DNA of 64,000 nucleotides, from contig OZ024741.1 in the NCBI GenBank assembly GCA_964016885.1, forward strand, positions 19,344,001 through 19,408,000, in the 5' to 3' direction. The position numbers were made by a program, and so were the translations under genes. Below, in pieces: positions 3,004 to 58,129 of this stretch (positions within the stretch are counted from its first letter, which is position 1; every line of letters starts with the position of its first letter). The notes below the pieces were generated by a model. The model was given only the letters and a program-made list of their open reading frames with translations. It searched no databases and was not told the DNA's origin. The stretch comes from Eledone cirrhosa. Taxonomy: Eukaryota.

Positions 3004-4730
3004 TTAGCTGTATACTTTATGGAAAGGTCTATGGGATTTATGCAAGCAGAGCGAAAATAAATCCGTACGTCTATTTATTATAGAATTAAAATTAGAGATA
3101 ATGGTAAATTTCTCGGCTAGGCAGAGATTACATGTTCTGGATAGGGAAGAATTCTGGTAAGGAAAGGCGTTGCAAACCTTCCTCCAAGAGATGTTATAGT
3201 TAATATTTTTGTCTTTTAAGGACCATATGAGTTCCGAGAGTGCCGTGTTAGTTCTTTTAAGTTGGTATTTAAAAGACGAATTGTGATTATAAAATCTTGC
3301 TTTAAAGGAAGTGGAAGTGGAACCAAAATAGGAAAAAGAATTAGTACCAGTTATAACCTTACATTCAAACACTAAGTTTTTATCAAGACATTGGTTATAA
3401 GAGGACATTTAGTTCTAACAGGGCAATTACAATTACGATTAGAGAAATTACCAGAGTTATTAACAAGTGACCTAGTATTATTTGTAGAAGGAACTGGATT
3501 GGAAAAGTTATTTACGATAGGAACTATAGTTTCCTGATTTAGATTGGTGTTATGAACATTCGACGAAGTTACGTTTGACGTCGTATTTAAATTTACTGAA
3601 TCTAGCCTAGAGTTAACATTGACGTCGGGTTTACTATTGCTATTATTATGACACTCAGTGTTGGATGGATATAATTTATTATTTAATATTTTATTATTAT
3701 GTTTAGAGATAATGTTAGAGATGTTGGAAGTGGTGGAATAAGAGAATTTGATTGTATGTTTGTTAAAGATCTTACTATAGATATGCGAGAGAGGGAAGCA
3801 TTTATCTAAGGCCCTAAAAAATAGTTTAGGAATATTACTAGTAATAGATAGAGAAAAAGGAGCATTATACCAAATCATATTTTTGTATCTAGGTCTTTTA
3901 TTTAAGTTATTGGAATGTTCATAACTAACTATTTTACTATAAGTCCTTCGATGATTGGTTTCTTTACTGTATTTAATTTTATCAAGATAACCGGCTTTGG
4001 AAAGCGCATTATTATAATAATTGGCATTAGCGTCGAAGATAACTTTATTAGAGGATAGATTTGAGATTCTTTTTTCAACATTCCTGACTATAGCATTTTT
4101 AACGTTAGTGGGGTGGTTAGATTTAAAATTAACATAATTTAGATTCTCATTGTCTTTATGGTAAGGGTAATATAGGCCGGTGTCAAGATTAAGGGATATA
4201 TCCAGGAAGTTAGCTAGTTTGACGTTGTTATCAAATTCAATTTTAAGGTTATGGTGCTTAAATAGATCAAGTATATTATTCTTAATAATATTAAGGTTAA
4301 CTAAGTTACAGTTTAAAACAGTAAAAAGGGCATCGTCACGATAAATTCCACCGCGAAGTTGAGGAATTTTCCGATTTAAAGAATTCAAAATAAAGATACC
4401 AATCAAGTCCGTCAATTGCGCTGAATCCGACGAACCCATTGTGATATCAAAATTGTTGGAAGTATCAGCTCTAGTCCAATATTAGTTGTTGAATTCCAGG
4501 ATAGTTTTCCTTGCGGTGAGAATGATGTAAAGTTCATCTGTAGTAATGTCAGAATATTTAAATGCGAAAGATAGAGCGTTGTTGAGGAGTGAAGGCGAAA
4601 TAGAAGAATAGTAACTGGCAATGTCAAACTGAATACATTTTTGTTTGTTTTTATTATTCAGGTCATTGAACCAGTTAATTACATCAGATGTACCAATCCA
4701 TAAATTTAAGTTAGAAATAGAGCAATTAGA
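3004..4730 (-). pseudogene. Disrupted PLE reverse transcriptase-GIY-YIG endonuclease ORF
   Basis: Motifs QFDIASYYSSI, FDITMGSSDSAQLTDLIGIFIL, GIYRDD, NFLDISLNL, SNHP, IWYNAPFS, CNC..CP, VFECKV..SYFGST..FKARFYNH and CNLCLAEK. One in-frame TAA near 4480 and a frameshift near 3400. Confidence 0.9.
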
Positions 4731-7119: not shown

Positions 7120-10100
7120 ATAGAGGTTGGGAGATATGAGAGAATGTCACCTAATGTGACAGGTTAAATAATGATATCAGAGGGAGGTTGGGAGATATGA
7201 GAGAATGTCACCTAATGTGACAGGTTAAATAATGATATGAGAGGGAGGTTGGGAGATATGAGAGAATGTCACCTCGTGTGACATGTTAAATAGTGATATG
7301 AGAGGGCGGTTGGGAGATATGAGAGAATGTCACCTAATGTGACAGGTTAAATAGTGATATGAGAAGGAGGTTGGGAGATATGAGAGAATGTCACCTAATG
7401 TGACAAATTAAATAGTGATATGAGAGGGAGGTTGGGAGATATGAGAGAATGTCACCTAATGTGACAGATTAAATAGTGATATGAGAGGGAGGTTGGGAGA
7501 TATGAGAGAATGTCACCTAATGTGACAGATTAAATAGTGATATGAGAGGGAGGTTGGGAGATATGAGAGAATGTCACCTAATGTGACAGGTTAAATAGTG
7601 ATATGAGAAGGAGCTTGGGAGATATGAGAGAATGTCACCTAATGTGACAGATTAAATAGTGATATGAGAGGGAGGTTGGGAGATATGAGAGAATGTCACC
7701 TAATGTGACAGATTAAATAGTGATATGAGAAGGAGGTTGGGAGATATGAGAGAATGTCACCTAATGTGACAGATTAAATAGTGATATGAGAGGGAGGTTG
7801 GGAGATATGAGAGAATGTCACCTAATGTGACAGATTAAATAGTGATATGAGAGGGAGGTTGGGAGATATGAGAGAATGTCACCTAATGTGACAGATTAAA
7901 TAGTGATATGAGAGGGAGGTTGGGAGATATGAGAGAATGTCACCTAATGTGACAAGTTAAATAGTGATATGAGAAGGAGGTTGGGAGATATGAGAGAATG
8001 TCACCTAATGTGACAGATTAAATAGTGATATGAGAGGGAGGTTGGGAGATATGAGAGAATGTCACCTAATGTGACAGATTAAATAGTGATATAAGAAGGA
8101 GGTTGGGAGATATGAGAGAATGTCACCTAATGTGACAGATTAAATAGTGATATGAGAGGGAGGTTGGGAGATATCAGAGAATGTCACCTAATGTGACAGG
8201 TTAAATAGTGATATGAGAGGGAGGTTGGGAGATATGAGAGATTGTCACCTAATGTGACAGATTAAATAGTGATATGAGAGTGATATGTGAGAATGTCACC
8301 TAATTTGACAGGTTAAATAGTGATATGAGAAGGAGGTTGGGAGATATGAGAGAATGTCACCTAATGTGACAGATTAAATAGTGATATGAGAGGGAGGTTG
8401 GGAGATATGAGAGAATGTCACCTAATGTGACAGATTAAATAGTGATATGAGAGGGAGGTTGGGAGATATGAGAGATTGTCACCTAATGTGACAGATTAAA
8501 TAGTGATATGAGAGGGAGGTTGGGAGATATGAGAGAATGTCACCTAATGTGACAGGTTAAATAGTGATATGAGAAGGAGGTTGGGAGATATGAGAGAATG
8601 TCACCTAATGTGACAGGTTAAATAGTGATATGAGAGGGAGGTTGGGAGATATGAGAGAATGTCACCTAATGTGACAGATTAAATAGTGATATGAGAGGGA
8701 GGTTGGGAGATATGAGAGAATGTCACCTAATGTGACAGATTAAATAGTGATATGAGAGGGAGGTTGGGAGATATGAGAGAATGTCACCTAATGTGACAGG
8801 TTAAATAGTGACATGAGAGGGAGGTTGGGAGATATGAGAGAATGTCACCTAATGTGACAGATTAAATAGTGATATGAGAGGGAGGTTGGGAGATATGAGA
8901 GAATGTCACCTAATGTGACAGATTAAATAGTGATATGAGAGGGAGGTTGGGAGATATGAGAGAATGTCACCTAATGTGTCAGGTTAAATAGTGACATGAG
9001 AGGGAGGTTGGGAGATGTGAGAGAATGTCACCTAATGTGTCAGGTTAAATAATGATATGAGAGGGAAGTTGAGAGATATGAGAGAATGTCACCTAATGTT
9101 ACAGATTAAATAGTGATATGAGAGGGAGGTTGGGAGATATGAGAGAATGTCACCTGATGTGTCAGGTTAAATAGTGACATGAGAGGGAGGCTGGGAGATG
9201 TGAGAGAATGTCACCTAATGTGACAGGTTAAATAGTGATATGAGAGAGAGGTTGGGAGATATGAGAGAATGTCACCTAATGTGACAGATTAAATAGTGAT
9301 ATGAGAGGGAGGTTGGGAGATATGAGAGAATGTCACCTAATGTGACAGGTTAAATAGTGATATGAGAGGGAGGTTGGGAGATATGAGAGAATGTCACCTA
9401 ATGTGACAGATTAAATAGTGATATGAGAGGGAGGTTGGGAGATATGAGAGAATGTCACCTAACGTGACAGATTAAATAGTGATATGAGAGTGATATGAGA
9501 GAATGTCACCTAATGTGACAGGTTAAATAGTGATATGAGAAGGAGGTTGGGAGATATGAGAGAATGTCACCTAATGTGACAGATTAAATAGTGATATGAG
9601 AGGGAGGTTGGGAGATATGAGAGAATGTCACCTAATGTGACAGATTAAATAGTGATATGAGAGGGAGGTTGGGAGATATGAGAGATTGTCACCTAATGTG
9701 ACAGATTAAATAGTGATATGAGAGGGAGGTTGGGAGATATGAGAGAATGTCACCTAATGTGACAGGTTAAATAGTGATATGAGAGGGAGGTTGGGAGATA
9801 TGAGAGAATGTCACCTAATGTGACAGGTTAAATAGTGATATGAGAAGGAGGTTGGGAGATATGAGAGAATGTCACCTAATGTGACAGGTTAAATAGTGAT
9901 ATGAGAGGGAGGCTGGGAGATATGAGAGAATGTCACCTAATGTTACAGATTAAATAGTGATATGAGAGGGAGGTTGGGAGATATGAGAGAATGTCACCTA
10001 ATGTTACAGATTAAATAGTGATATGAGAGGGAGGTTGGGAGATATGAGAGAATGTCACCTAATGTGACAGGTTAAATAGTGATATGAGAGGGAGGTTGGG

Positions 10101-10520
10101 AGATATGAGAGAATGTCACCCAATGTGACAGGTTAAATAGTGATATGAGAGGGAGGCTGGGAGATGTGAGAGAATGTCACCTAATGTGTCAGGTTAAATA
10201 GTGATATGAGAGGGAGGTTGGGAGATATGAGGGAATGTCACCTAATGTGACAGGTTAAATAGTGATATGAGAGGTAGGTTGGGAGATATGAGAGAATGTC
10301 ACCTAATGTGACAGGTTAAATAGTGATATGAGAGGGAGGTTGGGAGATATGAGAGAATGTCACCTAATGTGACAGGTTAAATAGTGACATGAGAGGGAGG
10401 TTGGGAGATATGAGAGAATGTCACCCAATGTGTCAGGTTAAATAGTGATATGAGAGGGAGGTTGGGAGATATGAGAGAATGTCACCTAATGTGACAGGTT
10501 AAATAATGATATGAGAGGGA
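7120..10520. repeat. 61-bp minisatellite, about 56 copies
   Basis: Unit gagggaggttgggagatatgagagaatgtcacctaatgtgacag(a/g)ttaaatagtgatatga, highly homogeneous. Confidence 0.97.
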
Positions 10521-13305: not shown

Positions 13306-13747
13306 GTAATAATAATAAATGTGAAGACTAAAATAAGAAGAAGGTTCGATAAGGATAAAATGTATATAAATATATATATAAAAACCGTAGAGCAAATATT
13401 TATTAAAATAACAGATTAAAGTTTAAGCAAAGAATCGCTGCTTTCACCCTTAACAGGATCTTCTGAAACTAAAACAAAAACAATCTGTGGACGCAGAAGT
13501 AAATATTTCGAAAAACGTTGCAACCGAAGGAAAATAGGAAGACGATACAAGGATAATAAAGGAAGGATAAATGTGGAGCGATGAGAACAATTTCACGCAG
13601 AGATAAAACAAACAAATCACGTTTATGGTATAAATGGAGTCATTAGACCAATATTCTATTTAGGAAACCGAATGATTCTCAGGTCCGGAGTTTAGAATAA
13701 TGTAAATAAATTTGTTGAATGAAAATGACAGAGGTTATTAAAATCGT

Positions 13748-14354
13748 GGGCGCCAGCGATTCGGCGGAGGTTACAGGTCTTATCGGCCTATTCCTACTTT
13801 TTTCTATCAAGGAAGATTTCCCTAATGTAGGCGATGGCCTGTACCGCGATGACGGTCTTTCGACCATGATCAAGTGCGGTCCCCGCGCTTGCGACAGGTT
13901 TAGGAAAGAACTCACAGCTTTCTTTAAAGGTTTCAACCTCTCCATACAAATTGAGGCCAACCTTTCTGTTGTAAACTACAAATGTAAGGTCGACACACCC
14001 ACGTCTAGTAGGTCCTACATTGGGATAACCGCCAATAGAGTCAAGCAGCGTCTTTACATGCACACCCATTCTTTTCTTAACCCTTTAAGAAGGAACATGA
14101 CGTCACTTTCGGCTAATATCTGGAGTCTAAAAGACAACCACGCCCAATATAGGTTACACTGGGAGATCCTAGCTAAAACTAGATCGTATAACGGAAACAA
14201 AAGACCATGCGATCTTTGTGCCGCTGAAGCCCTGAAAATACTCTACGCCAATGATCTAATCTTAAACAAAAAATCTGAGGAAATTTCGGCTTGTAAACAC
14301 AAATTGCATAAAACTTTCCTGTATTACAGCCCCACATTATACCCTAACGGATAG
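13748..14354 (+). pseudogene. PLE RT core fragment fused in frame to GIY-YIG endonuclease
   Basis: GASDSAEVTGLIGLFLL..GLYRDDGL..VVNY joined directly to KCKV..SYIGIT..KQRLYMH..CDLCAAE..SACKHK. The thumb/linker present in the 3004-4730 relative is missing. Confidence 0.85.
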
Positions 14355-27519: not shown

Positions 27520-30370
27520 TGTTTCTTTATTAGCCACAGGGGCACAAAAGACGGGGACAAATACAAAGGGGGAAGTTTACATACAATAAAAACGTGTAAA
27601 ATGTTATCACAAATGTAATTTAAAAAGTTAGTCGATTTTCCCCAATAGGGGGAGACAGTTTATATGGGTAACACATAACCCCGAAAAAATGTGCAACCCT
27701 CGTCTCAAGGAGTACGAAGAGTTGGTACTGCTTTCCTCTCCTCCTCCTTTTCCTCAACCTACAGGCTGATATAGAGAGAAGGCCCATTCACTCGGGCCAT
27801 TCTCGCCACTTTCACCCACCTTTCATAAAACTTGCTGGGGTACAGCACCTCTCTCTCCATCCTGATTCTTCTTCCAAAGTGGTATTTGAAAAAAAGAATC
27901 AGTTGTTGGCAGGAGAGAAAGGTGTCTGACCTCAGCCCTTTCAACCTTGTCCACCATACAACCTCTTTCGCCATAGCTATAACACAAAAGAAAACCGCCT
28001 CTCCTTCATTTTTGAAGGAGGGTGGCGGTTTGATCATGACAATGGACTCGGTGGTCAACTGGATTGGTCTCACCCGCGACAATAGTCGTTCTACATAGCC
28101 CCACAGTGACGCCCGGGCAGTGTATGAATGCGTGCGCGACGGTTTCTTCGTCTCGCACGCACCTCGGACAGATCTTTTTTGCAGGGTCCCTGCCCGGGCG
28201 CCCATGTCTGTAGAGCTTGTCTCGAACTGGTAGAGCTCCTCGGTAGCACTGCCAGGCCAGGGACTTTTGGAAGTTGTCCATCGGTCCCGGGCGGAAGGTC
28301 CTACCGAACAGACTGGCCAGTTCATCTTCCTCTACGCCTAGAGTTTCACCGAACGCATCGTCGCACTTGCTGCGGATCAACCCTCTATAGAATGACGAAG
28401 TGGAGTCTCCACTGATCGCCGGGTCCGCCTGCCAGAGGGCTGTGAGCGCCTGAGCACATTCGATGTGCCAGTCGCCCATTTTCCTCGGTCTTTGCTTGAC
28501 CCAGGACTGCAGCTCGGTCAGCGAGACGAGTCGTGGGAAGGCTCGCCTCACAAACGGGGCCCACACCGGTTGTCCGGTGAGGAATACGTAGAGATGCCGC
28601 AGCCTGAGCGCGTGTTTGCGCATCGTCAACCACGGCATCCCCAGCCCTCCGTTAGAAGGGTGTTGGCAGCAGATGGATCTTCTCACCAAAGGAGCCAGCC
28701 TCTTCCAAAGGAATCGGAAGAGCGCGCGTTCCATTTTGGCGAGCGTTTTGGCTGGACACGGCACGACGGTCAAGCGGTAGTAGATGGCGGACGCTATAAA
28801 AGTGTTCGCCACCTCCGCTCGACCTTTCAAGGATAGTTTGCACTCGGCCCACTTCTGGGTGAGTGCAAACACCTTGGCCGTCACTTCGTTCCAGTTCTTC
28901 TCCACCTGGAGGTCCGGACCAAACCAGACCCCGAGCAGCTTTACCGGTCCTTCCGTCCAGCGTCCGACGACGCCATCGGAAGGCATCGGTTTGCCTCTCC
29001 ACGATCCGAGTTGCAAACCGATGGACTTGTCCTGCTTCAGCTTCGCTCCTGTGAAACTTTCGTATTCCTTCAGTAAGGTGGCGACTTCCTCGATTTGCGA
29101 GGCGCTCGACACCATTACTGCCACGTCGTCGGCGTAGGCCGACGCCGCTTTCCGCAGTCCCGGTTCCAGAGGGATGCCCTGCAATAGCTCCAACTTCCGC
29201 AGTAGTGGCTCGAGAGTCAGTACATACAGAAGGGAGGAGAGAGGGCATCCCTGTCGAATGGATCGCGTAATATGGAACGGCTCCGAGAGGTAGCCGTTCA
29301 CCTTGACCCTTGAGCAGATGTTGCTGTTGTGCATTGCAGCAATCCAGCCCCTGAACACGGGTCCGAAGCCTGCCGCCTCGAGCACCGCATCCAGGTAACG
29401 ATGGTCAACCCTATCGAAAGCCTTAGACTGATCCAAGTTGATCAGGGCCCCACCGAAGCTGGGTTTACACCCTACCCTCTCTATGATGTATCGCATGAGG
29501 TGGAGGTTGTCGCGTATGGACCTGGTCGGGATTGCGCATGCCCGCGCTTCTCCCACCAGGTTCTCGACGACAAGCGCCAGCCTCTTTGCCAACACCTTGG
29601 CCAAAATCTGTAACTCTGTGTTTAGCAGAGTTATGGGCCGGAAGTTGCCTATGTTATCCCCCTTATTCTCGTCCTTCCTGATTAGTGTGACCACGCCCCC
29701 GGTACAGAACTGGGAATTCTCCCCGTTCTGTTGCCAGTTGCAGTAGACCGCTTCCAGGAGACCGGAGAATAAGTCCGGCATTGCTACGTAAAATTCGTAG
29801 GGTAGACCGTCGAGACCTGGAGATTTGCGTTTGCCGCATTGGCTCAGCGCGTCCCCTATCTCAGTGGCTGAAATCGGCTTTTCGCAGAACTTCGCCTCGC
29901 TGTCCGAGAGTCGCGGTAGGCCGTCGAGGTATGGACCGATATCCATAGCCTCTCCCGGCACACCGTCCCCCCCCCGAACAGCTGAGCAAAGTGCCGCTGA
30001 AAAGCCGCACACATCTGCTTCGGCTCACGTATCACGCGTCCGTTTTGGTCCTTCAAAGACCGAATCGTGGACTTGTTGCCACTTTTTGCCTCCGTCACTC
30101 GGGCCCAGCTAACAGCTTTGGCTCCCTCGTTTCCCAGAGCACGTATTTTGTTTCAGACAACGCAGCCCTCGTGCTTTGCGTCGAAGAACTGGTCCAAGGC
30201 CGTTCTCGTTGCTAGCACGCTGGCTACGTTGCCACTTCTAATTGCCTCTTCTACTTTATCTACCAGTTCCTTCTCGGTTCTATTTCTATCTAACGCTAAT
30301 TCTTTACTAAAAACTATCGAGTCTAATCTAACTGCCCTCTCGAGAGAGTACCACCATCTGTTGTTGACAA
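27520..30370 (-). mobile_element. 5'-truncated Tx1/L1-clade LINE in (GATA)n
   Basis: GC-rich block ending in AATAAAgaaacatatctatctat on the minus strand. Both flanks contain atagatag(a/c)cagatatatagata. Confidence 0.9.
28006..30012 (-). CDS. Non-LTR reverse transcriptase (Tx1-like ORF2 C-terminal part; frameshifted near 28100 and 30010)
   Basis: KSPGLDGLPYEFY, NFRPITLLNTE, LDQSKAFDRVDH, RQGCPLS, AYADD, GGLGMP and zinc knuckle CPRC..EETVAHAFIHC. The C-terminus continues in the 27759-28325 frame. Confidence 0.92.
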   Translation of the reverse strand: MCGFSAALCSAVRGGDGVPGEAMDIGPYLDGLPRLSDSEAKFCEKPISATEIGDALSQCGKRKSPGLDGLPYEFYVAMPDLFSGLLEAVYCNWQQNGENSQFCTGGVVTLIRKDENKGDNIGNFRPITLLNTELQILAKVLAKRLALVVENLVGEARACAIPTRSIRDNLHLMRYIIERVGCKPSFGGALINLDQSKAFDRVDHRYLDAVLEAAGFGPVFRGWIAAMHNSNICSRVKVNGYLSEPFHITRSIRQGCPLSSLLYVLTLEPLLRKLELLQGIPLEPGLRKAASAYADDVAVMVSSASQIEEVATLLKEYESFTGAKLKQDKSIGLQLGSWRGKPMPSDGVVGRWTEGPVKLLGVWFGPDLQVEKNWNEVTAKVFALTQKWAECKLSLKGRAEVANTFIASAIYYRLTVVPCPAKTLAKMERALFRFLWKRLAPLVRRSICCQHPSNGGLGMPWLTMRKHALRLRHLYVFLTGQPVWAPFVRRAFPRLVSLTELQSWVKQRPRKMGDWHIECAQALTALWQADPAISGDSTSSFYRGLIRSKCDDAFGETLGVEEDELASLFGRTFRPGPMDNFQKSLAWQCYRGALPVRDKLYRHGRPGRDPAKKICPRCVRDEETVAHAFIHCPGVTVGLCRTTIVAGETNPVDHRVHCHDQTATLLQK

Positions 30371-38609: not shown

Positions 38610-40085
38610 AGTAATAATAATAAATTTGAAGACTAAAATCCAAAGAGGGCTCGATAAGGATAAATATATATCAAATATATAAGAACCGTAGAGCAAATAT
38701 TTATTAAAATAACAGATTAAAGTTTAAGCAAAGAATCGGTGCTTTCACCCTTAACGGGATCTTCTGAAACTAACAAAGTCAATCTGTAAACGCAGGACTG
38801 CATATTTCAAAAAAACGTTGCAACCGGAGGAAGACAGGAAGACGATACTTTGGTTCGTGGTAACGTTCGCTGGCAAAGAACGGGAAAAAACGAATATAAT
38901 TGTTTCTACTTTTGGCACAAGGCCAGCAATTACCCAGTGTATTACTGGTACTTTATTTTATCGACCCCATAAGGATGAAAGGCAAAGTTAACCTCGGCGG
39001 GATTTGAACTCAGAATGGCAAGGGCCGTAACTCTATGCGTCAAAGCATGGCGTCCGACCCTCTACCGATACTGCCAATCCACTGGCCACTGGAAAAAACG
39101 AATATAATACGTCATTAATAGGAGCGGTGAAAAACAATTACGCGCAAAGACAGAACCACGTTTATGGTATAAAAGAGGTCATAGACTAATGTTCTCTTAG
39201 GTGGTGCATAGAGACGTTCTCTGGCAATGAACGAAAAAAAAAACGAAGCTAAGAACAATAGCACGCAAAGACAAAACCACGTAAATGGTATAGCAGAAGT
39301 CGTAGACTAAAATTCTAACTAGGAGACCGAATGAATCTCCGCTACAGAGTTAAGAACAAAGTAAATAAATACAATACAGAAGTAATAGAAATAAATAAAT
39401 ACATACACGCAAACAAATACGTACATACACAAGCATACGCAAAAACTACCATAGGTAAACAAAACCACGCACATATAAATATGTGTGTGTGTGTATGCGT
39501 GTATACAAATAAATAAATAATTATATAAACGTATATAAATAAATAAATACGTATATAACAAGCGCACACACATACCCACATGTAAATACACGAATGTTCG
39601 GAGACGTAAGTCAACCAAAACATGAAGTACGCATATACACACGCCCACCATACGTACGAACCTGCATACTCACACGGTTAGAATTTTAGTCTACGACTTC
39701 TGCTATACCATTTACTCGGTTTTGTCTTTGCGTGCTATTGTTCTTAGCTTCGTTTTTTTTCGTTCATTGCCAGAGAACGTCTCTATGCACCACCTAAGAG
39801 AACATTAGTCTACGACCTCTTTTATACCATAAACGTGGTTCTGTCTTTGCGCGTAATTGTTTTTCACCACTCCTATTAATGACGTATTATATTCGTTTTT
39901 TCCCGTTCTTTGCCAGCGAACGTTACCACGAACCAAAGTATCGTCTTCCTGTCTTCCTCCGGTTGCAACGTTTTTTGAAATATCCAGTCCTGCGTTTACA
40001 GATTGACTTTGTTAGTTTCAGAAGATCCGGTTAAGGGTGAAAGCAGCGATTCTTTGCTTAAACTTTAATCTGTTATTTTAATAAA
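38610..40085 (-). mobile_element. ORF-less PLE tail fold-back (family of 13306/16097)
   Basis: 38697-39320 and 39677-40085 are near-identical inverted arms once the SINE in the left arm is removed. (TA)n flanks. Confidence 0.85.
38901..39090 (-). mobile_element. SINE family 1 copy with 18-bp TSD
   Basis: TSD ggaaaaaacgaatataat at 38883-38900 and 39091-39108. The empty site is visible in the mate arm at about 39885-39903. Confidence 0.9.
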
Positions 40086-40100
40086 TATATATATATATAT

Positions 40101-41028
40101 AAAGAATTAATATCTAGTAACATATATATATACATACAGATGCATATCAATGCTAGCAAATATATAGGTTTTGTCTTAGTAACTTTGTGGTTCAATGCAT
40201 GGGGTTTCAGAACAATAATATGAGAGACGTAAAATAAGAAAATTATAAAATTAACTTACTTACTAAAATTTCACGATGGCTAGGAATTCAGTCCACGCTT
40301 TGCTCTTTTCTATCCACTGAATTATTTTTGAATAAGTTTCCAGAGTCCACGCTTTGCCTGGATACTTAGCTGAGAATAGTCTTCCCTGACGACGAAATGA
40401 TTCTCTATATTTTCTTCGGAAAGTATATTTATTCCATTTCAGAAACTAATTAGTTGGGAGTGAAATTTTAGTAAGTAAGTTAATTTTATAATTTTCTTAT
40501 TTTACGTTTCTCATATTATTGTTCTGCAACCCCATGCATTGAACCACAAAGTTACTAAGACAAAACCTATATATTTGCTGGCATTGATATGCATCTGTAT
40601 GTATATATATGTTACTAGATAATAATTCTTTATAATTATCTCCAAATTATTTGTCGAGCAATATTGGCCAAGACTGCTGCTATGGTAGCAAGCAGGCCGC
40701 TGTCTTATTAACAAACCACTTTCCACTGATTGACCTCGATGTCACGTGATTGATTCTTTTTGAATTTGCCACCGACGCAGAGGCAGTGATTTTCTCAATG
40801 GCTAGGAATTCAGTCCACGCTTTGCTATTTTCTATCCACTGAATTATTTTTGAATAAGTTTCCAGAGTCCACGCTTTGCCTGGATACTTAGCTGAGAATA
40901 GTCTTCCCTGACGACGAAATGATTCTCTATATTTTCTTCGGAAAGTATATTTATTCCATTTCAGAAACTAATTAGTTGGGAGTGAAATTTTAGTAAGTAA
41001 ATTAATTTTATAATTTTCTTATTTTACG

Positions 41029-41036
<8 letters not shown>
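40101..41036 (+). mobile_element. Non-autonomous HHR element: 522-bp partial tandem with inverted 5' segment
   Basis: 40276-40515 is repeated at 40798-41036. 40101-40274 is the reverse complement of 40460-40632. (TA)n flanks. Confidence 0.85.
40381..40460 (+). ncRNA. Type I hammerhead ribozyme (second identical copy 40903-40982)
   Basis: cttcc CTGACGA c gaaatg...catttc a GAAA ctaattag TT gggag; palindromic stem III. Confidence 0.75.
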
Positions 41037-41094
<58 letters not shown>

Positions 41095-41306
41095 CGTTTC
41101 TGAATTTGTTTAGCAAGATTCTTTATCTGAAATCGTGTGTTGAAACCGATATTGTTATACTTTGGGAGGGTCATGTTGCCAATAAGAAACACACGCACCA
41201 GTTGCTTTCACTTCAATTTATTATATATTTATAAATTTACAAATTTATAAATTTATAAATTTCTGGTTGGTTGGTTGGTTCCACAACCAGATAGTTGTTT
41301 ATATAT

Positions 41307-41351
41307 AGTCATAGTTCTTTCGTCACACACTCTGTGACCTCTTCAGTGACT
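41307..41351 (-). ncRNA. Minimal type I hammerhead ribozyme in PLE 3' tail
   Basis: agtca CTGAAGA g gtcac agagtgt gtgac GAAA g aa c TA tgact. Confidence 0.75.
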
Positions 41352-41551
41352 GGGGACTCCTTTCTTTGTTTCTGTGCCTCTCCTTTGTTCTGTCCTACGC
41401 CATTTTGTTTCTGTGTGTGTGTTGTGTGCTCAGTCTGCGCATGCGCCACATCCGGGTGTCTGTGTGTGTTTATGTTGATTTATCTATTTGTTTATTTACA
41501 TGTTACTGGTTGGTTGTTTGTTCTATGTGTGTGTGTGTTTTCATTTTGTCC

Positions 41552-42447
41552 TTAATTGTAAGTTGTGATGTTGCTGTTCCACTCATATTTTCTATTTAAT
41601 TTTGGTTGTAATTCTTTTATGTTTATTGCCTCTGTAATTTGTATAAACATTGCGTCTTTTCTGTGTGTAGATTCTATTTTTATTTCTATGTTCTCTAATT
41701 TACCCTTGTGTTCTATCTTAGCATGTTGGTAGAGTACAGATGATTCTTTATTATCTTGAAGGTCTCGCCAGTGTTCATTTATCCGTTCCCCTACACTACG
41801 AGCTGTCTCACCTATGTACACTATATTTTTGTCTCTACATTGTCCTTCGGTACATCTTATGCTATACACTACATTTCTAGTTTTACAGTTAATATGGGGG
41901 CTTATTTTACAGGTTATACATTTCTTATCTATACATGAGGGTCTTTGAAAAGGGTATGTCTTGCTAATAAGTGTTTTTACGGAGGTACTTGGTCTTTCTA
42001 CTATCTTAATATTGAGTTTATGTTTATTTAGGGCCCTTCTAAATTTGTAAGCTAGTTCACCTCTAGGGGTTGTATCGATGAACATTACACTCTGGTATTT
42101 ATTGCTATCATACCATGAGTTTATTCTATTAGCCTTGTTCCTAGTTCTTTCTATCCTATTCCAAAATTTGCTTCTATACAAGGGGCAGGTCCCATTTATG
42201 TCATTATTTACCATTTTTTCCCATTTGGTTCTGGCTCCTCTATACACTCTGATTCTATCTCTCTGATTGTAGCCAGAGAACTGCATACGGTGGATGAAGT
42301 GTTGTATGTGTCTCTCTAGTTCTTCGGGGTTGCACATGCGGGACACATTTCACATCACCCGTACCAAATCCGCAATCAGTATGTTGATTTTGGTATGTTC
42401 CGAAATGGCCGAGTTTCGGTGGATCAGATGTTTGGAAGTCATGGGTT
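41552..42447 (-). pseudogene. 5'-truncated PLE thumb + GIY-YIG endonuclease (Naiad-like)
   Basis: KPMTSKHLIHRNSA..LVRVM*NVSR..MQFSGY..PLYRSKFWNR..WY..TPRGEL..C..KKCITC..NCKTRNVVYSIRC..YIGETARSVGERINEH..EAINIKELQPKLNRKYEW. One TGA at 42350-42352. Confidence 0.88.
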
Positions 42448-45400
42448 TGGCTAGATTTTTCTTTTGCAATATATATACAGATGTGTTGGTATCTGTGTTT
42501 CATCACATACATATTAATTTATACACTGCTCAGGGGGTATTTTTCCTACTTCGAGCTGATTTCATTGTAAAAGAATTCATTACCTTAATAATTTTAACTG
42601 CACCTAGTTTGAGCTGCAAGCCGCCTCATATATACGACTGTTATTTCTAGCAGTACGGTTATGAGACTAGTTAGATACTGTAAAGCCATGTGCGTCACGC
42701 AGTCTTTTCAATTATTTAGAAGTGAAGCATATCAATTTGTCTCTGGAGGTTTACTGAGGAGAGCGGGACATGATATTCCTACACTTATTTAACTCGAAAC
42801 ATATTTGGATCTTAAAGTCTAAACTTATCTACGGAACAGGTTTGATTTTGAAATTTAAATGTGTCTAAACATCACGGCCTCTTGGCAATACAGTTCGTCT
42901 CCGTTGATTTATTATTTTAAATCGATATGGACAAACTGTAGTATAATAATTAATATACTTCAATCTGGCTAGATTTTTCTTTTGCAATATATATACAGAT
43001 GTGTTGGTATCTGTGTTTCATCACATACATATTAATTTATACACTGCTCAGGGGTTATTTTTCCTACTTCGAGCTGATTCCATTGTAAAAGAATTCATTA
43101 CCTTAATAATTTTAACTGCTCCTAGTTTGAGCTGCAAGCCGCCTCATATATACGACTGTTATTTCTAGCAGTACGGTTATGAGACTAGTTAGATACTGTA
43201 AAGCCATGTGCGTCACGCAGTCTTTTCAATTATTTAGAAGTGAAGCATATCAATTTGTCTCTGGAGGTTTACTGAGGAGAGCGGGACATGATATTCCTAC
43301 ACTTATTTAACTCGAAACATATTTGGATCTTAAAGTCTAAACTTATCTACGGAACAGGTTTGATTTTGAAATTTAAATGTGTCTAAACATCACGGCCTCT
43401 TGGCAATACAGTTCGTCTCCGTTGATTTATTATTTTAAATCGATATGGACAAACTGTAGTATAATAATTAGTATACTTCAATCTGGCTAGATTTTTCTTT
43501 TGCAATATATATACAGATGTGTTGGTATCTGTGTTTCATCACATACATATTAATTTATACACTGCTCAGGGGGTATTTTTCCTACTTCGAGCTGATTCCA
43601 TTGTAAAAGAATTCATTACCTTAATAATTTTAACTGCTCCTAGTTTGAGCTGCAAGCCGCCTCATATATACGACTGTTATTTCTAGCAGTACGGTTATGA
43701 GACTAGTTAGATACTGTAAAGCCATGTGCGTCACGCAGTCTTTTCAATTATTTAGATGTGAAGCATATCAATTTGTCTCTGGAGGTTTACTGAGGAGAGC
43801 GGGACATGATATTCCTACACTTATTTAACTCGAAACATATTTGGATCTTAAAGTCTAAACTTATCTACGGAACAGGTTTGATTTTGAAATTTAAATGTGT
43901 CTAAACATCACGGCCTCTTGGCAATACAGTTCGTCTCCGTTGATTTATTATTTTAAATCGATATGGACAAACTGTAGTATAATAATTAGTATACTTCAAT
44001 CTGGCTAGATTTTTCTTTTGCAATATATATACAGATGTGTTGGTATCTGTGTTTCATCACATACATATTAATTTATACACTGCTCAGGGGGTATTTTTCC
44101 TACTTCGAGCTGATTCCATTGTAAAAGAATTCATTACCTTAATAATTTTAACTGCTCCTAGTTTGAGCTGCAAGCCGCCTCATATATACGACTGTTATTT
44201 CTAGCAGTACGGTTATGAGACTAGTTAGATACTGTAAAGCCATGTGCGTCACGCAGTCTTTTCAATTATTTAGATGTGAAGCATATCAATTTGTCTCTGG
44301 AGGTTTACTGAGGAGAGCGGGACATGATATTCCTACACTTATTTAACTCGAAACATATTTGGATCTTAAAGTCTAAACTTATCTACGGAACAGGTTTGAT
44401 TTTGAAATTTAAATGTGTCTAAACATCACGGCCTCTTGGCAATACAGTTCGTCTCCGTTGATTTATTATTTTAAATCGATATGGACAAACTGTAGTATAA
44501 TAATTAGTATACTTCAATCTGGCTAGATTTTTCTTTTGCAATATATATACAGATGTGTTGGTATCTGTGTTTCATCACATACATATTAATTTATACACTG
44601 CTCAGGGGGTATTTTTCCTACTTCGAGCTGATTCCATTGTAAAAGAATTCATTACCTTAATAATTTTAACTGCTCCTAGTTTGAGCTGCAAGCCGCCTCA
44701 TATATACGACTGTTATTTCTAGCAGTACGGTTATGAGACTAGTTAGATACTGTAAAGCCATGTGCGTCACGCAGTCTTTTCAATTATTTAGATGTGAAGC
44801 ATATCAATTTGTCTCTGGAGGTTTACTGAGGAGAGCGGGACATGATATTCCTACACTTATTTAACTCGAAACATATTTGGATCTTAAAGTCTAAACTTAT
44901 CTACGGAACAGGTTTGATTTTGAAATTTAAATGTGTCTAAACATCACGGCCTCTTGGCAATACAGTTCGTCTCCGTTGATTTATTATTTTAAATCGATAT
45001 GGACAAACTGTAGTATAATAATTAGTATACTTCAATCTGGCTAGATTTTTCTTTTGCAATATATATACAGATGTGTTGGTATCTGTGTTTCATCACATAC
45101 ATATTAATTTATACACTGCTCAGGGGGTATTTTTCCTACTTCGAGCTGATTCCATTGTAAAAGAATTCATTACCTTAATAATTTTAACTGCTCCTAGTTT
45201 GAGCTGCAAGCCGCCTCATATATACGACTGTTATTTCTAGCAGTACGGTTATGAGACTAGTTAGATACTGTAAAGCCATGTGCGTCACGTAGTCTTTTCA
45301 ATTATTTAGATGTGAAGCATATCAATTTGTCTCTGGAGGTTTACTGAGGAGAGCGGGACATGATATTCCTACACTTATTTAACTCGAAACATATTTGGAT

Positions 45401-47185
45401 CTTAAAGTCTAAACTTATCTACGGAACAGGTTTGATTTTGAAATTTAAATGTGTCTAAACATCACGGCCTCTTGGCAATACAGTTCGTCTCCGTTGATTT
45501 ATTATTTTAAATCGATATGGACAAACTGTAGTATAATAATTAGTATACTTCAATCTGGCTAGATTTTTCTTTTGCAATATATATACAGATGTGTTGGTAT
45601 CTGTGTTTCATCACATACATATTAATTTATACACTGCTCAGGGGGTATTTTTCCTACTTCGAGCTGATTCCATTGTAAAAGAATTCATTACCTTAATAAT
45701 TTTAACTGCTCCTAGTTTGAGCTGCAAGCCGCCTCATATATGCAACTGTTATTTCTAGCAGTACGGTTATGAGACTAGTTAGATACTGTAAAGCCATGTG
45801 CGTCACGCAGTCTTTTAAATTATTTAGAAGTGAAGCATATCAATTTGTCTCTGGAGGTTTACTGAGGAGAGCGGGACATGATATTCCTACACTTATTTAA
45901 CTCGAAACATATTTGGATCTTAAAGTCTAAACTTATCTACGGAACAGGTTTGATTTTGAAATTTAAATGTGTCTAAACATCACGGCCTCTTGGCAATACA
46001 GTTCGTCTCCGTTGATTTATTATTTTAAATCGATATGGACAAACTGTAGTATAATAATTAGTATACTTCAATCTGGCTAGATTTTTCTTTTGCAATATAT
46101 ATACAGATGTGTTGGTATCTGTGTTTCATCACATACATATTAATTTATACACTGCTCAGGGGGTATTTTTCCTACTTCGAGCTGATTCCATTGTAAAAGA
46201 ATTCATTACCTTAATAATTTTAACTGCTCCTAGTTTGAGCTGCAAGCCGCCTCATATATGCAACTGTTATTTCTAGCAGTACGGTTATGAGACTAGTTAG
46301 ATACTGTAAAGCCATGTGCGTCACGCAGTCTTTTAAATTATTTAGAAGTGAAGCATATCAATTTGTCTCTGGAGGTTTACTGAGGAGAGCGGGACATGAT
46401 ATTCCTACACTTATTTAACTCGAAACATATTTGGATCTTAAAGTCTAAACTTATCTACGGAACAGGTTTGATTTTGAAATTTAAATGTGTCTAAACATCA
46501 CGGCCTCTTGGCAATACAGTTCGTCTCCGTTGATTTATTATTTTAAATCGATATGGACAAACTGTAGTATAATAATTAGTATACTTCAATTTGGCTAGAT
46601 TTTTCTTTTGCAATATATATACAGATGTGTTGGTATCTGTGTTTCATCACATACATATTAATTTATACACTGCTCAGGGGGTATATTTCCTACTTCGAGC
46701 TGATTCCATTGTAAAAGAATTCATTACCTTAATAATTTTAACTGCTCCTAGTTTGAGCTGCAAGCCGCCTCATATATGCGACTGTTATTTCTAGCAGTAC
46801 GGTTATGAGACTAGTTAGATACTGTAAAGCCATGTGCGTCACGCAGTCTTTTAAATTATTTAGAAGTGAAGCATATCAATTTGTCTCTGGAGGTTTACTG
46901 AGGAGAGCGGGACATGATATTCCTACACTTATTTAACTCGAAACATATTTGGATCTTAAAGTCTAAACTTATCTACGGAACAGGTTTGATTTTGAAATTT
47001 AAATGTGTCTAAACATCACGGCCTCTTGGCAATACAGTTCGTCTCCGTTGATTTATTATTTTAAATCGATATGGACAAACTGTAGTATAATAATTAGTAT
47101 ACTTCAATCTGGCTAGATTTTTCTTTTGCAATATATATACAGATGTGTTGGTATCTGTGTTTCATCACATACATATTAATTTATA
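42448..47185 (+). repeat. 518-bp tandem array (9.15 units), one hammerhead per unit; retrozyme-like
   Basis: Landmark ctggaggtttactgagg at 42743, 43261, 43779, 44297, 44815, 45333, 45851, 46369 and 46887 (exact 518 period). Only a few substitutions between units. Confidence 0.95.
42747..42826 (+). ncRNA. Type I hammerhead ribozyme, first of nine (every 518 bp)
   Basis: aggttta CTGAGGA gag...ctc GAAA c atatttggatcttaaa g TC taaactt; GUC at 42817-42819. Stem I extends as tctg/cgga past a bulge. Confidence 0.85.
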
Positions 47186-47461
47186 TATTTATATATATAT
47201 ATATATTCCAACGTAGAACACTTAACTCATGTGATGCTATTCATTTGCAGTGTCATTAATACATCTATCATAATAAAACTGTCGTTTTAACCGCAATGAT
47301 CTCTCATCTGCGATGTTTACACACATTTATTTGCTCTTTATTTCATCTGTTTTAGCAAGCAACTCTTATTTGTTGTCTTCAAAGTAAATTTGATGCTGTC
47401 GGGTACCATCAAACTGGAAAACCACCCAATAAACTGATATATTGCTCGGTTTCTACATGCA

Positions 47462-52004: not shown

Positions 52005-53570
52005 GGGTGTGTATGATTGTGTATTGAAGATTATATTAATAAGAGGAATTCCAACTTTGTCTGATTTACTCGTTTTATTTACAATCCTTTAAAATATATA
52101 TAATGGTATTATAATGAAATAGTATGGTAGAATATTAAATTCTAAGTGTTAATTGAACAAGTACTTTCATGCTTTCGCAATCTTCAGGTTCATGATATGT
52201 GGTGACAGTCGAGTTTGCAATTTTCAACTGTAATGAGATGGGTAAATTTCCTACCTTTTATACATTTTATACAGAGAAAAGTGGCTCCAGAATGCAAAGC
52301 CCTGTAAACTGTATTTCGACCAATCAGTGTGTAGTTTCACTGAATTACTACAGCTGATTGGTTTAAGCGTCACGGCTGGTTGAGCATGCTAACGACCAAT
52401 AGTCATACCCAACGTATCAATTGTTTTGCTTTTTGAAATGATGAAAATAGCATTTTCTATTAATCATCACCATCAACATCACTTTTATTATTATTATTAT
52501 TGTTGTTGTTGTTGTTATTGTTGTTGTTAGTGGTCGTGGTCATAGTGGTAGTAGAAATAATACCCCTAGGCGTTATTATTGTTCATTTAGCTTGGGTTTG
52601 AATTTATCAATAAAATTCTTTTCTTTGATTTTTCTCTTGATTTCACTTGGGCTGTGTAATTTGTAGAATGGGAATATTATAAATATTCCCTAACCACATG
52701 TTGCCAGGTGGCCGCTTAGGGGTATCTGACGGACATTTGGGTCTCTGATTTGTTGACGGTGTACCCGTGCACGTTCCAATAGTGCATTTCCAGTTTGACC
52801 GACATATAGTTCTTCACAATTCGGGCATTTAATGCAGTAAATTAGATTTCTGCTTTTGCAGTTCATATTTGCATTTGGGAATATTTTTCCAGTTTTTGTT
52901 TTCATATATTGACCGGCGTGTATGGATTGACATGTGCCGCATCGATTATCATTGCATTTAGATACAGTGAATGATTGGTCTTTGTTGTTAAGGTCAAACT
53001 TTGCTTTTGTTAGCAATTGCTTCAAATTTTTTGGCTGTCTTTTACTAAGAGTCAAAGATCGATCTGTGATTAAGCCTTTTAATTCATTACTTTGAGCAAT
53101 GATCGGTAGGTTTGCTTTGGCAGTGTTGAATATATTTTGGTGACATGGGTTGTGTGTCATTATAAATGGTATGACCAGTTCTTGGTTTCTTCTTCCTTGG
53201 GTTGTTCTAAGTTGTTGTATAGGTATTTTTATAAAATTAAACCAATCAGCTGTAGTAATTCAGTGAAACTACACACTGATTGGTCGAAATACAGTTTACA
53301 GGGCTTTGCATTCTGGAGCCACTTTTCTCTGTATAAAATATATAAAAAGTAGGAAATTTACCCATCTCATTACAGTTGAAAATTGCAAACTCGACTGTCA
53401 CCACATATCATGAACCTGAAGATTGCGAAAGCATGAAAGTACTTGTTCAATTAACACTTAGAATTTAATATTCTATCATACTATTTCATTATAATACCAT
53501 TATATATATTTTAAAGGATTGTAAATAAAACGAGTAAATCAGACAAAGTTGGAATTCCTCTTATTAATAT
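52005..53570 (-). mobile_element. 5'-truncated Neptune-like PLE with inverted pseudo-LTRs, each carrying an HHR (52154-52192 -, 53411-53449 +)
   Basis: About 52033-52366 is inverted at about 53238-53570. HHR: tgaac CTGAAGA t tgc gaaa gca t GAAA gtac TT gttca. Confidence 0.9.
52577..53235 (-). pseudogene. PLE linker Zn-finger + GIY-YIG endonuclease fragment
   Basis: THNP..KRQPKNLKQLLTKA..KCNDNRCGTC..MNCKSRNLIYCIKCPNCEELYVGQTG..ERARVHRQQI..HLATCG*..FPFYK..KEKNFIDKFKPKLN. Premature TAG at 52690. Confidence 0.88.
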
Positions 53571-53989: not shown

Positions 53990-54754
53990 CATATATATAC
54001 ATATATATGTATATATATATACATATATATACATATATATGGAATACTGTTAGCTTCTCGCTAAAACAATTTCTATACGTTTCATTTATTTATATATATG
54101 TATATATATATATGTGTGTGTGTGCGTGTGTGTGTGTATATACATATGCGCGTGTATGTATGTATGTGTGTATACATATGTGCGTGTATGTGTGTGTCCC
54201 TACACATTCACACACATACAATATATTGAATGGCAAACAAATCTCTGTCTCTCTCTAACATATGTTCACACCACAAAACTATTTCTATATTAATTTCTCT
54301 ATATCACACAGTCTGTGTCTATGTGTGTCTGTATGTGTGAAGTACTAGCTGCTGCTGCTGCTGCTTCTACTACTACTGCTGCTGCTCTGCTACTACTTCT
54401 GCTGCGGCTACTACTGCTGCTCCTGCTGCTGCTACTACTACTACTGCTGCTGTAGTTTAATGTATTATCGACTGGTAACTATTGATGCGGTATTCTTGGA
54501 ATAGAGAAACTTAACAGAATGTTATGATAGCTTTGAACTTTGACAGTGCTAGACTCCCCCCACCCACCCTTACTAAACCTACACACTAGCAACTTCAAGG
54601 TTCAATGGGCAGTCTTTTGATGTGCTAGAAGTAGCTACCAAATCTCCCTTAAATCACCCACTACCATCATTATAACAGATAGCATGATGTAGTCTGACCT
54701 AGACTACATCAGAATGAAGGCAGGAGGCTCATAATTGGAAAAAACTATTGACCA

Positions 54755-56968
54755 GTCAGTATACCTGAGCTGGGTAGTGGGGTGGTGTTGAGGGTTGGTA
54801 TACCTGAGCTGGGTAGTGGGGTGGTGTTGAGGGTTGGTATACCTGAGCTGGGTAGTGGGGTGGTGTTGAGCGTCAGTATACCTGAGCTGGGTAGTGGGGT
54901 GGTGTTGAGGGTTGGTATACCTGAGCTGGGTAGTGGGGTGGTGTTGAGGGTCAGTATACCTGAGATGGGTAGTGGGGTGGTGTTGAGGGTTGGTATACCT
55001 GAGCTGGGTAGTGGGGTGGTGTTGAGCGTCAGTATACCTGAGCTGGGTAGTGGGGTGGTGTTGAGGGTTGGTATACCTGAGCTGGGTAGTGGGGTGGTGT
55101 TGAGGTTTGGTATACCTGAGCTGGGTAGTGGGGTGGTGTTGAGGGTCAGTATACCTGAGCTGGGTAATGGGGTGGTGTTGAGCGTCAGTATACCTGAGCT
55201 GGGTAGTGGGGTGGTGTTGAGGGTTGGTATACCTGAGCTGGGTAGTGGGGTGGTGTTGAGGGTTGGTATACCTAGCTGGGTAGTGGGGTGGTGTTGAGGG
55301 TCAGTATACCTGAGCTGGGTAGTGGGGTGGTGTTGAGGGTTGGTATACCTGAGCTGGGTAGTGGGGTGGTGTTGAGGGTCAGTATACCTGAGCTGGGTAG
55401 TGGGGTGGTGTTGAGGGTTGGTATACCTGAGCTGGGTAGTGGGGTGGTGTTGAGGGTTGGTATACCTGAGCTGGGTAGTGGGGTGGTGTTGAGGGTCAGT
55501 ATACCTGAGCTGGGTAGTGGGGTGGTGTTGAGGGTCAGTATACCTGAGCTGGGTAGTGGGGTGGTGTTGAGGGTCAGTATACCTGAGCTGGGTAGTGGGG
55601 TGGTGTTGAGCGTCAGTATACCTGAGCTGGGTAGTGGGGTGGTGTTGAGGGTCAGTATACCTGAGCTGGGTAGTGGGCTGGTGTTGAGCGTCAGTATACC
55701 TGAGCTGGGTAGTGGGGTGGTGTTGAGGGTTGGTATACCTGAGCTGGGTAGTGGGGTGGTGTTGAGGGTTGGTATACCTGAGCTGGGTAGTGGGGTGGTG
55801 TTGAGGGTCAGTATACCTGAGCTGGGTAGTGGGGTGGTGTTGAGCGTCAGTATACCTGAGCTGGGTAGTGGGGTGGTGTTGAGGGTTGGTATACCTGAGC
55901 TGGGTAGTGGGGTGGTGTTGAGGGTTGGTATACCTGAGCTGGGTAGTGGGGTGGTGTTGAGGGTTGGTATACCTGAGCTGGGTAATGGGGTGGTGTTGAG
56001 GGTCAGTATACCTGAGCTGGGTAGTGGGGTGGTGTTGAGGGTTGGTATACCTGAGCTGGGTAGTGGGGTGGTGTTGAGGGTCAGTATACCTGAGCTGGGT
56101 AGTGGGGTGGTGTTGAGGGTTGGTATACCTGAGCTGGGTAGTGGGGTGGTGTTGAGGGTTGGTATACCTGAGCTGGGTAGTGGGGTGGTGTTGAGGGTCA
56201 GTATACCTGAGCTGGGTAGTGGGGTGGTGTTGAGGGTTGGTATACCTGAGCTGGGTAGTGGGGTGGTGTTGAGGGTTGGTATACCTGAGCTGGGTAGTGG
56301 GGTGGTGTTGAGGGTCAGTATACCTGAGCTGGGTAGTGGGGTGGTGTTGAGGGTCAGTATACCTGAGTTGGGTAGTGGGGTGGTGTTGAGGGTTGGTATA
56401 CCTGAGCTGGGTAGTGGGGTGGTGTTGAGGGTTGGTATACCTGAGCTGGGTAGTGGGGTGGTGTTGAGGGTCAGTATACCTGAGCTGGGTAGTGGGGTGG
56501 TGTTGAGGGTTGGTATACCTGAGCTGGGTAGTGGGGTGGTGTTGAGGGTCAGTATACCTGAGCTGGGTAGTGGGGTGGTGTTGAGGGTTGGTATACCTGA
56601 GCTGGGTAGTGGGGTGGTGTTGAGGGTCAGTATACCTGAGCTGGGCAGTGGTGTAGTGTTGAGGGTCAGTATACCTGAGCTGGGTAGTGGGGTGGTGTTG
56701 AGGGTTGGTATACCTGAGTTGGGTAGTGGGGTGGTGTTGAGGGTTGGTATACCTGAGCTGGGTAGTGGGGTGGTGTTGAGGGTCTGTATACCTGAGCTGG
56801 GTAGTGGGGTGGTGTTGAGGGTCAGTATACCTCAGCTGGGCAGTGGGGTGGTGTTGAGGGTTGGTATATCTGAGCTGGGTAGTGGGGTGGTGTTGAGGGT
56901 CAGTATACCTGAGCTGGGTAGTGGGGTGGTGTTGAGGGTCAGTATACCTGAGCTAGGCAGTGGGGTGA
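54755..56968. repeat. 39-bp G-rich minisatellite, about 57 copies
   Basis: Unit tatacctgagctgggtagtggggtggtgttgagggt(tgg/cag). Confidence 0.97.
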
Positions 56969-58129
56969 GCTCCTGCTGGACTACAAAATGACTGAAATAT
57001 GTTGTTTATCACCTCTTCCCCCCCCCCATGTGTCTCCCTTCGTGGCACTGGCTTCACCAAACTGGGTTGGGTGTGAAAGTGAGAGCTCAGTACTATAACC
57101 AATGTAATGCTTGGATTACACTATCCTAAAGTACATATACTTGTGGCTGGGCACCACTTGTGGAACCAAACACCTAATGGAACTCCGTTGAAATGAACTT
57201 ACACCATGAATTCCTTCAATGGAGCCAGCTCAACCCCTCCCCCACCAGGTGGAGCCAGCTCAACCCCTCACCACCAGGTGAACTCCACCACAAATACAAG
57301 TACAAGCAATAGTACATCACTGCAATACTGGTTCACAGCCAAGTGTTGTTTCATGTTGAGATGATAGTACACGAGTATTTATATCAGTAGTATTTGTACT
57401 ACAGATGACATTGTGTATAGTTTTAGTAATAACAACACTGGTGGGTATTAATACCTTGATAGTACTTTGGAAGGTAGTGGTGGTGGCGGTGAGGAGCTGC
57501 TGCTACTACTGCTGCTGATCTCATGTGACGTCTTACACAGAGATTTCACCTATTTTGATGTTGAACGCTCTACAAATTAGTCAATTAACCTCACCGATAA
57601 TGCGAACAACAATAATAATAATAGCAATAATAATGATGATGAAGATGATGATGATGATGATGATTATGAAGATTCCATTTTTATTTATTGTTACTACGGA
57701 GGTGGGGGAGAGAGTTTCTGGTGTTAGAGATGGAGACATTGGGAAAACTGCGAGGTATTTCTAAGAGAGTTATTAGACATATCAGGTGTTAACGTTGTTT
57801 GCATAATTGGTTATATGGGGAGGGGGGGGGGGTTACTGGGCAGAAAGGAGGAGGTCATCATCATCACCGTCATCATCATTATTGTTGTAGTTGTTGTTGT
57901 AGTAGTTGTTGTTGTTGTAGTTGTTGTAGTTGTTGTTGTTGCTGTAGTTGTTGTTGATTTTGTTGTATGCCTTCCCTGCATCACCAAGCGTAACACTGTT
58001 TATTTTGGGAACGTGAAATGTTGTTATTGTTGTTATCGTTGTTATTGTTGTTATTGCTGTTGTTGTTGTTATTGCTTTGGTTTCCTTTCTCTTTTCCTTT
58101 AAATTTGTATTGAGAGAACATTGTCTAAT

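Follow-up and report, generated by a model that had tools for sequence, protein, structure and literature searches.

A retrozyme-like hammerhead array fused head-to-head to a 5'-truncated PLE in Eledone cirrhosa, a candidate product of one integration with two RNA templates

We analysed a 64,000-nucleotide stretch of Eledone cirrhosa DNA (the window, G000:C2:19344001-19408000), in which a 5'-truncated PLE on the minus strand (41093-42451), here PLE1, meets an array of 518-bp hammerhead repeats on the plus strand (42448-47185), here family A, head-to-head and with no spacer. The features of the locus are the following.

41035..41092, no strand: (AT)n tract of 58 bp, the left half of the target site, which also flanks a neighbouring two-armed repeat
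41093..42451, minus strand: PLE1, a 5'-truncated PLE with a C-terminal endonuclease, of Neptune/Nematis type, ending at its family's long ('tail') 3' end
41307..41351, minus strand: minimal type I hammerhead motif in the PLE1 3' UTR, found by pattern, with core CUGAAGA at 41346 and a predicted cut after 41312
41552..42451, minus strand: ORF remnant read from the frame, with the end of the RT region, a CX4CxxC linker and a GIY-YIG-type endonuclease
42448..42451, no strand: microhomology TGGC (4 nt), common to the PLE and the retrozyme unit at the 5'-5' join, on the basis of comparison with other copies
42448..47185, plus strand: family A retrozyme-like array, 9 x 518 bp + 76 bp (9.1 copies), which stops at unit position 76, the short 3' end of the family
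42747..42826, plus strand: hammerhead motif (type I) in the first unit, in which stem I has 7 bp, the core CUGAGGA lies at 42754 and GAAA at 42796, with a predicted GUC cut after 42819
47186..47206, no strand: short (AT)n tract, the right half of the target site, with single-copy DNA beyond

The PLE had initially been taken to begin at 41290; comparison with other copies shows that its 3' end lies 200 bp further left, at 41093. The window copy is 98.9% identical to the nearest copy examined, with six private changes in 1359 nt, and its frame contains a private premature stop (42350-42352). In the 827-aa PLE1 frame at locus L436, the RT motif YVDD lies at aa 452 and the endonuclease motif at aa 722, so that the endonuclease is C-terminal; the linker CIDKKCVTC at aa 701 is followed by VVYSIRCTEGQC...YIG and then by two His residues, recognised by eye. 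Naiads, as described in the available text of PMC8557442, are defined by an N-terminal GIY-YIG endonuclease, a DKG motif changed to DKA and the lack of a canonical hammerhead. The description of this element as Naiad-like in the initial annotation was therefore mistaken, since PLE1 carries its endonuclease C-terminally, has DKSG in place of the DKA of Naiads and bears a hammerhead in its 3' UTR. Judged by its sequence, the C-terminal GIY-YIG, the CX2-5CxxC linker and the CCHH-like residues of PLE1 fit Neptune or Nematis. Pfam returned only a weak RVT_1 match for PLE1, leaving the GIY-YIG endonuclease remnant unrecognised, and the PLE1 hammerhead had no Rfam match.

PLE1 is very abundant, with 10,300 exact matches to its short 3' end, and its copies have two alternative termini inside the ORF start, one short and one long, which are separated by 56 nt. 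It shows the features of EN+ PLEs, namely a pLTR ending inside the ORF start, an inverted 5' copy, a one-sided tail and a (TA)n target. An inverted copy of the element's own tail, which had been reported for other PLEs at the corresponding position, is typical of PLE1 (31 head-to-head blocks); this was checked in genome loci, the window's own inverted-repeat scan being swamped by (AT)n. The PLE1 ORF also has a long asparagine-rich N-terminal region (L437, L438, L440), which resembles the N-rich inserts reported for rotifer Penelopes. PLE-like fragments of other families occur in the window at 3004-4481, 13719-14354 and 52579-53259, the last with a weak GIY-YIG Pfam match.

The units of the array are 98.8-100% identical to unit 1, and the hammerhead motif recurs every 518 bp with a minimal stem III; no mismatched pair is needed to draw its core and stems I-III, and none of the 11 columns that vary among the nine units falls inside it. 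The motif was located by pattern and had no Rfam match. The predicted hammerhead fold differs from the minimum-energy fold of the unit (z=+1.24; imposed fold +2.6 kcal/mol), and cleavage may require a dimer or be weak. The hammerheads of the PLE and the array had been called unrelated, and indeed they have the catalytic core alone in common; a blastn comparison of the unit with PLE1 gave no match better than E=0.29 and no similarity beyond that core. All nine units carry alleles that are rare in family A, with later variants shared by neighbouring units, a pattern indicative of a single source with later tandem expansion or homogenisation. Nine copies alone are therefore no proof of rolling-circle copying.

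Family A is dispersed and young, with 174 exact short ends genome-wide and neither an LTR nor an ORF in its dispersed copies, and the window unit is 98-99% identical to the nearest of these. A sister family, B (551 bp), is about 67-78% alike and has homologous ends. The short ends lie downstream of the predicted ribozyme cut in all three families (155 nt in PLE1, 222 nt in A, about 207-218 nt in B), so copying would cross the cut site, which would imply RNA that is uncut or re-ligated. Elsewhere in the window are a satellite (61 bp x 56 copies, 7123-10520) and a long minisatellite (~54700-57000) with open frames on both strands.

The PLE frame had been described as abutting the array at 42447/42448 on opposite strands. 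The adjacency and orientation stand, with the frame reading AKPMTSK from 42451, but the join is not blunt or exact: other PLE copies continue through 42451, so that TGGC is counted in both elements. (AT)n is found only at the two outer ends of the composite and is absent from the join. Both outer ends, 41093 for the PLE and 47185 for the array, are standard 3' ends of their families, and neither element is nested in the other. A 27-mer across the junction occurs a single time in the 3.0-Gb assembly (<=2 mismatches allowed), which contains no second haplotype of the locus. The junction was compared with three sets of contigs, all derived from a single sample, and with a reduced-representation run. 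The matches were mostly to other PLE copies, and PLE-like contigs diverged from the window behind 42451; no contig or read spanning the junction is among the matches listed, most matches being unlisted, and those listed neither support the junction nor speak against it. The fusion in the window is genuine and unique within the assembly.

A TSD around the composite is unreadable, as the flanks on both sides are (AT)n. Nor do the flanks provide the two halves of a split older element, the left flank being another repeat and the right flank single-copy. This neighbouring two-armed repeat (40081-41034) also lies in (AT)n flanks, repeats with a period of 522 bp, has one arm inverted (40098-40274) and bears a core-like motif, CUGACGA...GAAA. 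It is unrelated to A, B and PLE1 and, from its sequence, is probably an additional retrozyme-like family.

To place the locus in context, we assembled a set of 234 complete insertions of family A from beyond the window, using top hits and exact end patterns and de-duplicating by flanks, with a few residual duplicates. Of these, 131 were self-inverted and 100 single-armed, and the other 3 were mixtures with PLE1. Wherever a self-inverted insertion had both ends canonical (112/112), a short end was paired with a long one, at unit positions 76 and about 145, while the 19 further ones each had one non-canonical end; for self-inverted insertions of the other families with both ends canonical, the pairing was found in 30/32 for family B and 27/27 for PLE1. 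Overlaps of 1-6 nt were present at 46/99 self-inverted family A junctions. Divergence between arms was lower within insertions than between them (A, 0.8% vs 2.6%; B, 1.7 vs 5.8; PLE, 2.6 vs 4.0), and no clear case was found of arms from different subfamilies in one insertion. Retrozymes integrate in the manner of PLE1, ordinarily with one template for both arms, and events with two RNAs must consequently be rare at most. A quarter of the single-armed A insertions (25/100) lacked (AT)n at the 5' end, some being joined to old or unique DNA. Two tandem (AT)n-targeting families (L115:454-1036; L012:2585-3272), G (about 583 bp) and H (about 490 bp), each have two fixed ends, one used per arm, and no standard hammerhead core was found in family G.

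Five of the 234 A insertions (~2%, window excluded) are fused head-to-head, with a direct join, to other elements that target (AT)n.

L336, C4:78.04 Mb: A and PLE1, with a PLE1 short end and a long A end
L137, C4:39.20 Mb: A with a short piece of A in inverted orientation, family B and the tail of a PLE1, the parts about 98% identical to their nearest copies
L302: A and a different young PLE (PLE3)
L240: A and tandem family G
L122: A and tandem family H

At L336 the join runs from PLE through 16 nt of A and 7 nt of PLE into A again, and the inserted A segment falls outside the locus's own second arm. Neighbours were screened in eight families only; the mixed blocks L336, L137, L091 and L350 were entered into the neighbour table by hand, alignment-artefact self-hits (L396 twice, L421, L126, L157) were removed, and the tandem joins L091, L350 and L326 were excluded from the hybrid count because insertion into the AT tail of an older element explains them. 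Head-to-head neighbours were direct in five cases and separated by (AT)n in one (L410), versus one direct and five separated among tandem neighbours, an excess of direct hybrids with a two-sided Fisher p=0.08 (0.04 after adding family B) and a binomial p=0.005 when the 25% frequency of 5' ends without (AT)n is taken as the expectation.

PLE1 is the commonest partner of A, in three of the six hybrids with the window included. As to an enrichment of the 518-bp units next to PLE1, raised in the initial annotation, the excess for PLE1 taken singly is modest (2 observed vs about 0.3-0.5 expected, p=0.04-0.09), and other partners were also found. The last 55 A loci yielded no additional PLE1 fusion, and hybrids were not enriched in a search with a combined A + B + PLE query. 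Short and long ends are paired in three of the seven assignable hybrids (the window, L336 and L350/L440, as against L137, L302, L122 and L186), where the end classes of PLE2, PLE3 and H are inferred from few copies and L240 is unassignable. With the hybrids as a class at chance level, we dropped this pairing as single-event evidence for the window.

Two further composites were observed. Together, L350 and L440 (G000:C2:285924200-285933000) form a three-part composite of a B array, an older PLE2 and a 3.6-kb PLE1; the PLE1 lies head-to-head, a short fold-back marks the join, and the outer termini are the short end of B and the long end of PLE1. At L179, a truncated LINE copy (L179:150-1004), related to a 672-aa LINE-type RT frame on the minus strand of the window (28006-30024), adjoins a family A 5' end head-to-head.

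Taken together, we consider it probable, with real room for doubt, that a single Penelope-type integration into (AT)n gave rise to both the PLE fragment and the array as its two arms, a different RNA being copied on each side. A PLE GIY-YIG endonuclease would open the (AT)n tract, and reverse transcription would be primed on the left side at the long end of PLE1 RNA (41093) and on the right side at the short end of retrozyme RNA (47185). The truncated cDNAs would then be joined through the TGGC microhomology, and the array would afterwards probably be enlarged by local tandem duplication. Support for a single event comes from the placement of (AT)n at the outer ends only, the standard 3' ends, the direct 5'-5' join and the absence of nesting, as well as from the other direct hybrids and the family-wide two-armed signature. 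It comes also from the youth of both parts, seen in the few private changes of PLE1 and the close resemblance of the unit to its nearest copies.

The use of a foreign hammerhead RNA as second template in one integration, as the initial annotation had it, is thus the best-supported reading, next to which independent insertions keep some weight. No TSD of the array's own, the sign of an independent insertion, was seen: at its 5' end the array lacks a separate target flank, although (AT)n hides any TSD. That the locus links a retrozyme to its mobilising enzyme holds as regards the physical fusion but not as regards a unique mobiliser, A being fused also to a second kind of PLE and to two tandem families without coding capacity. 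Given these varied partners, the fusion shows shared machinery and not one proven mobiliser. As to the wider proposition, that Penelope-type integration consists of two priming events able to use different RNAs, and that about 2% of retrozyme insertions are natural two-template hybrids, PLE-retrozyme or retrozyme-retrozyme, we regard the case as evenly poised.

The most serious alternative, possible though in our judgement rather unlikely, is that two separate insertions in the same or a nearby (AT)n tract were joined by microhomology-mediated end joining or by a later deletion. The (AT)n hot spots are indeed shared, with 18 retrozyme-PLE1 neighbour pairs within 250 nt, yet only one of these 18 is 5'-to-5', compared with five direct 5'-to-5' hybrids, and outward-pointing PLE1 covers just 0.5-0.9% of flank bases. 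The single-armed A insertions without 5' (AT)n and the direct joins to clearly older elements (L186 and L350 with PLE2, L091, and L179 with the LINE) are in line with two insertions; at L186 and L350 a young B is joined to PLE2, whose copies are 88-91% alike, and these joins fit insertion plus target deletion. Cases in which a 5' end is joined directly to DNA that is old or unrelated indicate that a deletion route exists; set against this, both parts of the window composite are young. The hybrids as a class break the short-plus-long rule, which also suits two insertions, and short templated inserts like that at L336 are possible in end joining; polymerase-theta repair can leave such inserts.

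An assembly chimera of two repeats would agree with the lack of a spanning contig or read among the matches listed, but it is very improbable in view of the unique junction, the clean microhomology, the canonical ends, the coherent flanks on both sides with the right one single-copy, and the comparable hybrids at other loci. That PLE1 ordinarily carries the unit as its pLTR or 5' part, a possibility named at the outset and suggested by the resemblance of Xenopus retrozymes to PLE pLTRs (bioRxiv 10.64898/2026.07.22.740005), or that the composite is itself mobile, is scarcely tenable, and the first of these is refuted for PLE1, as the unit lacks sequence similarity to PLE1 and is present within 1.5 kb at 0/29 other long PLE1 loci and in 0/5 long PLE1 regions, and the junction is single-copy.

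PLEs have been proposed as the mobilisers of metazoan retrozymes (Cervera and de la Pena 2020, PMC7229834), and retrozymes have been proposed to be non-autonomous PLE derivatives that hijack PLE enzymes (Li, Clavereau, Pollet 2026, bioRxiv 10.64898/2026.07.22.740005). In the available text of these sources, mobilisation of animal retrozymes by PLEs is argued from co-occurrence, shared hammerheads and pLTR homology, while the mechanism of PLE transposition is described as still to be worked out (PMC8557442). PLE-retrozyme hybrids were not found in the open-access literature searched. If our reading of one integration with two templates is correct, such hybrids would be fossils of two RNAs at one break and would provide direct physical evidence that retrozymes are mobilised in trans by a helper with which they have no sequence in common; a genome-wide hybrid census would then map PLE enzymes to the ribozyme RNAs they handle. 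The hybrids constrain the mechanism, one template usually feeding both arms, with exceptions, and through locus counts and allele typing the question of mobilisation becomes testable.

Among known systems, LINE-1 chimeras such as U6/L1 and Alu/L1 (bioRxiv 10.1101/2025.02.02.635956) similarly contain two RNAs in one insertion, and L1 twin priming yields a head-to-head inversion with microhomology; LINE-1 belongs to another enzyme class, however, and at the Eledone locus each arm begins at the 3' site where its own family normally primes, with the TSD unreadable in (AT)n. With metazoan non-LTR retrozymes (PMC7229834), family A shares a non-coding, low-GC tandem repeat, a type I hammerhead motif per unit and many dispersed copies. 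Its 518-bp unit, known from sequence alone, is longer than the 150-450 bp described, and the available sections of that work describe neither physical PLE-retrozyme hybrids nor fixed short and long ends, both of which are found here. Retrozymes also co-occur with EN+ PLEs in the study of Li et al. 2026 (bioRxiv 10.64898/2026.07.22.740005); there, the evidence consists of co-distribution and pLTR homology, whereas here it is the anatomy of insertions, with no homology between unit and PLE in a comparison that covers PLE1. Insertions of EN+ PLEs themselves (Craig et al. 2021, PMC8557442; Arkhipova lab 2013, PMC3846280) share the inverted 5'-truncated copy, the one-sided extension, the pLTR overlapping the ORF start, the (TA)n targeting and the microhomology joins. 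Tails are longer in our families, at 56 nt in PLE1 and about 69 nt in family A, compared with 30-40 in EN+ PLEs, and where the inverted arm of an EN+ PLE is its own tail, that of the window is a foreign hammerhead repeat.
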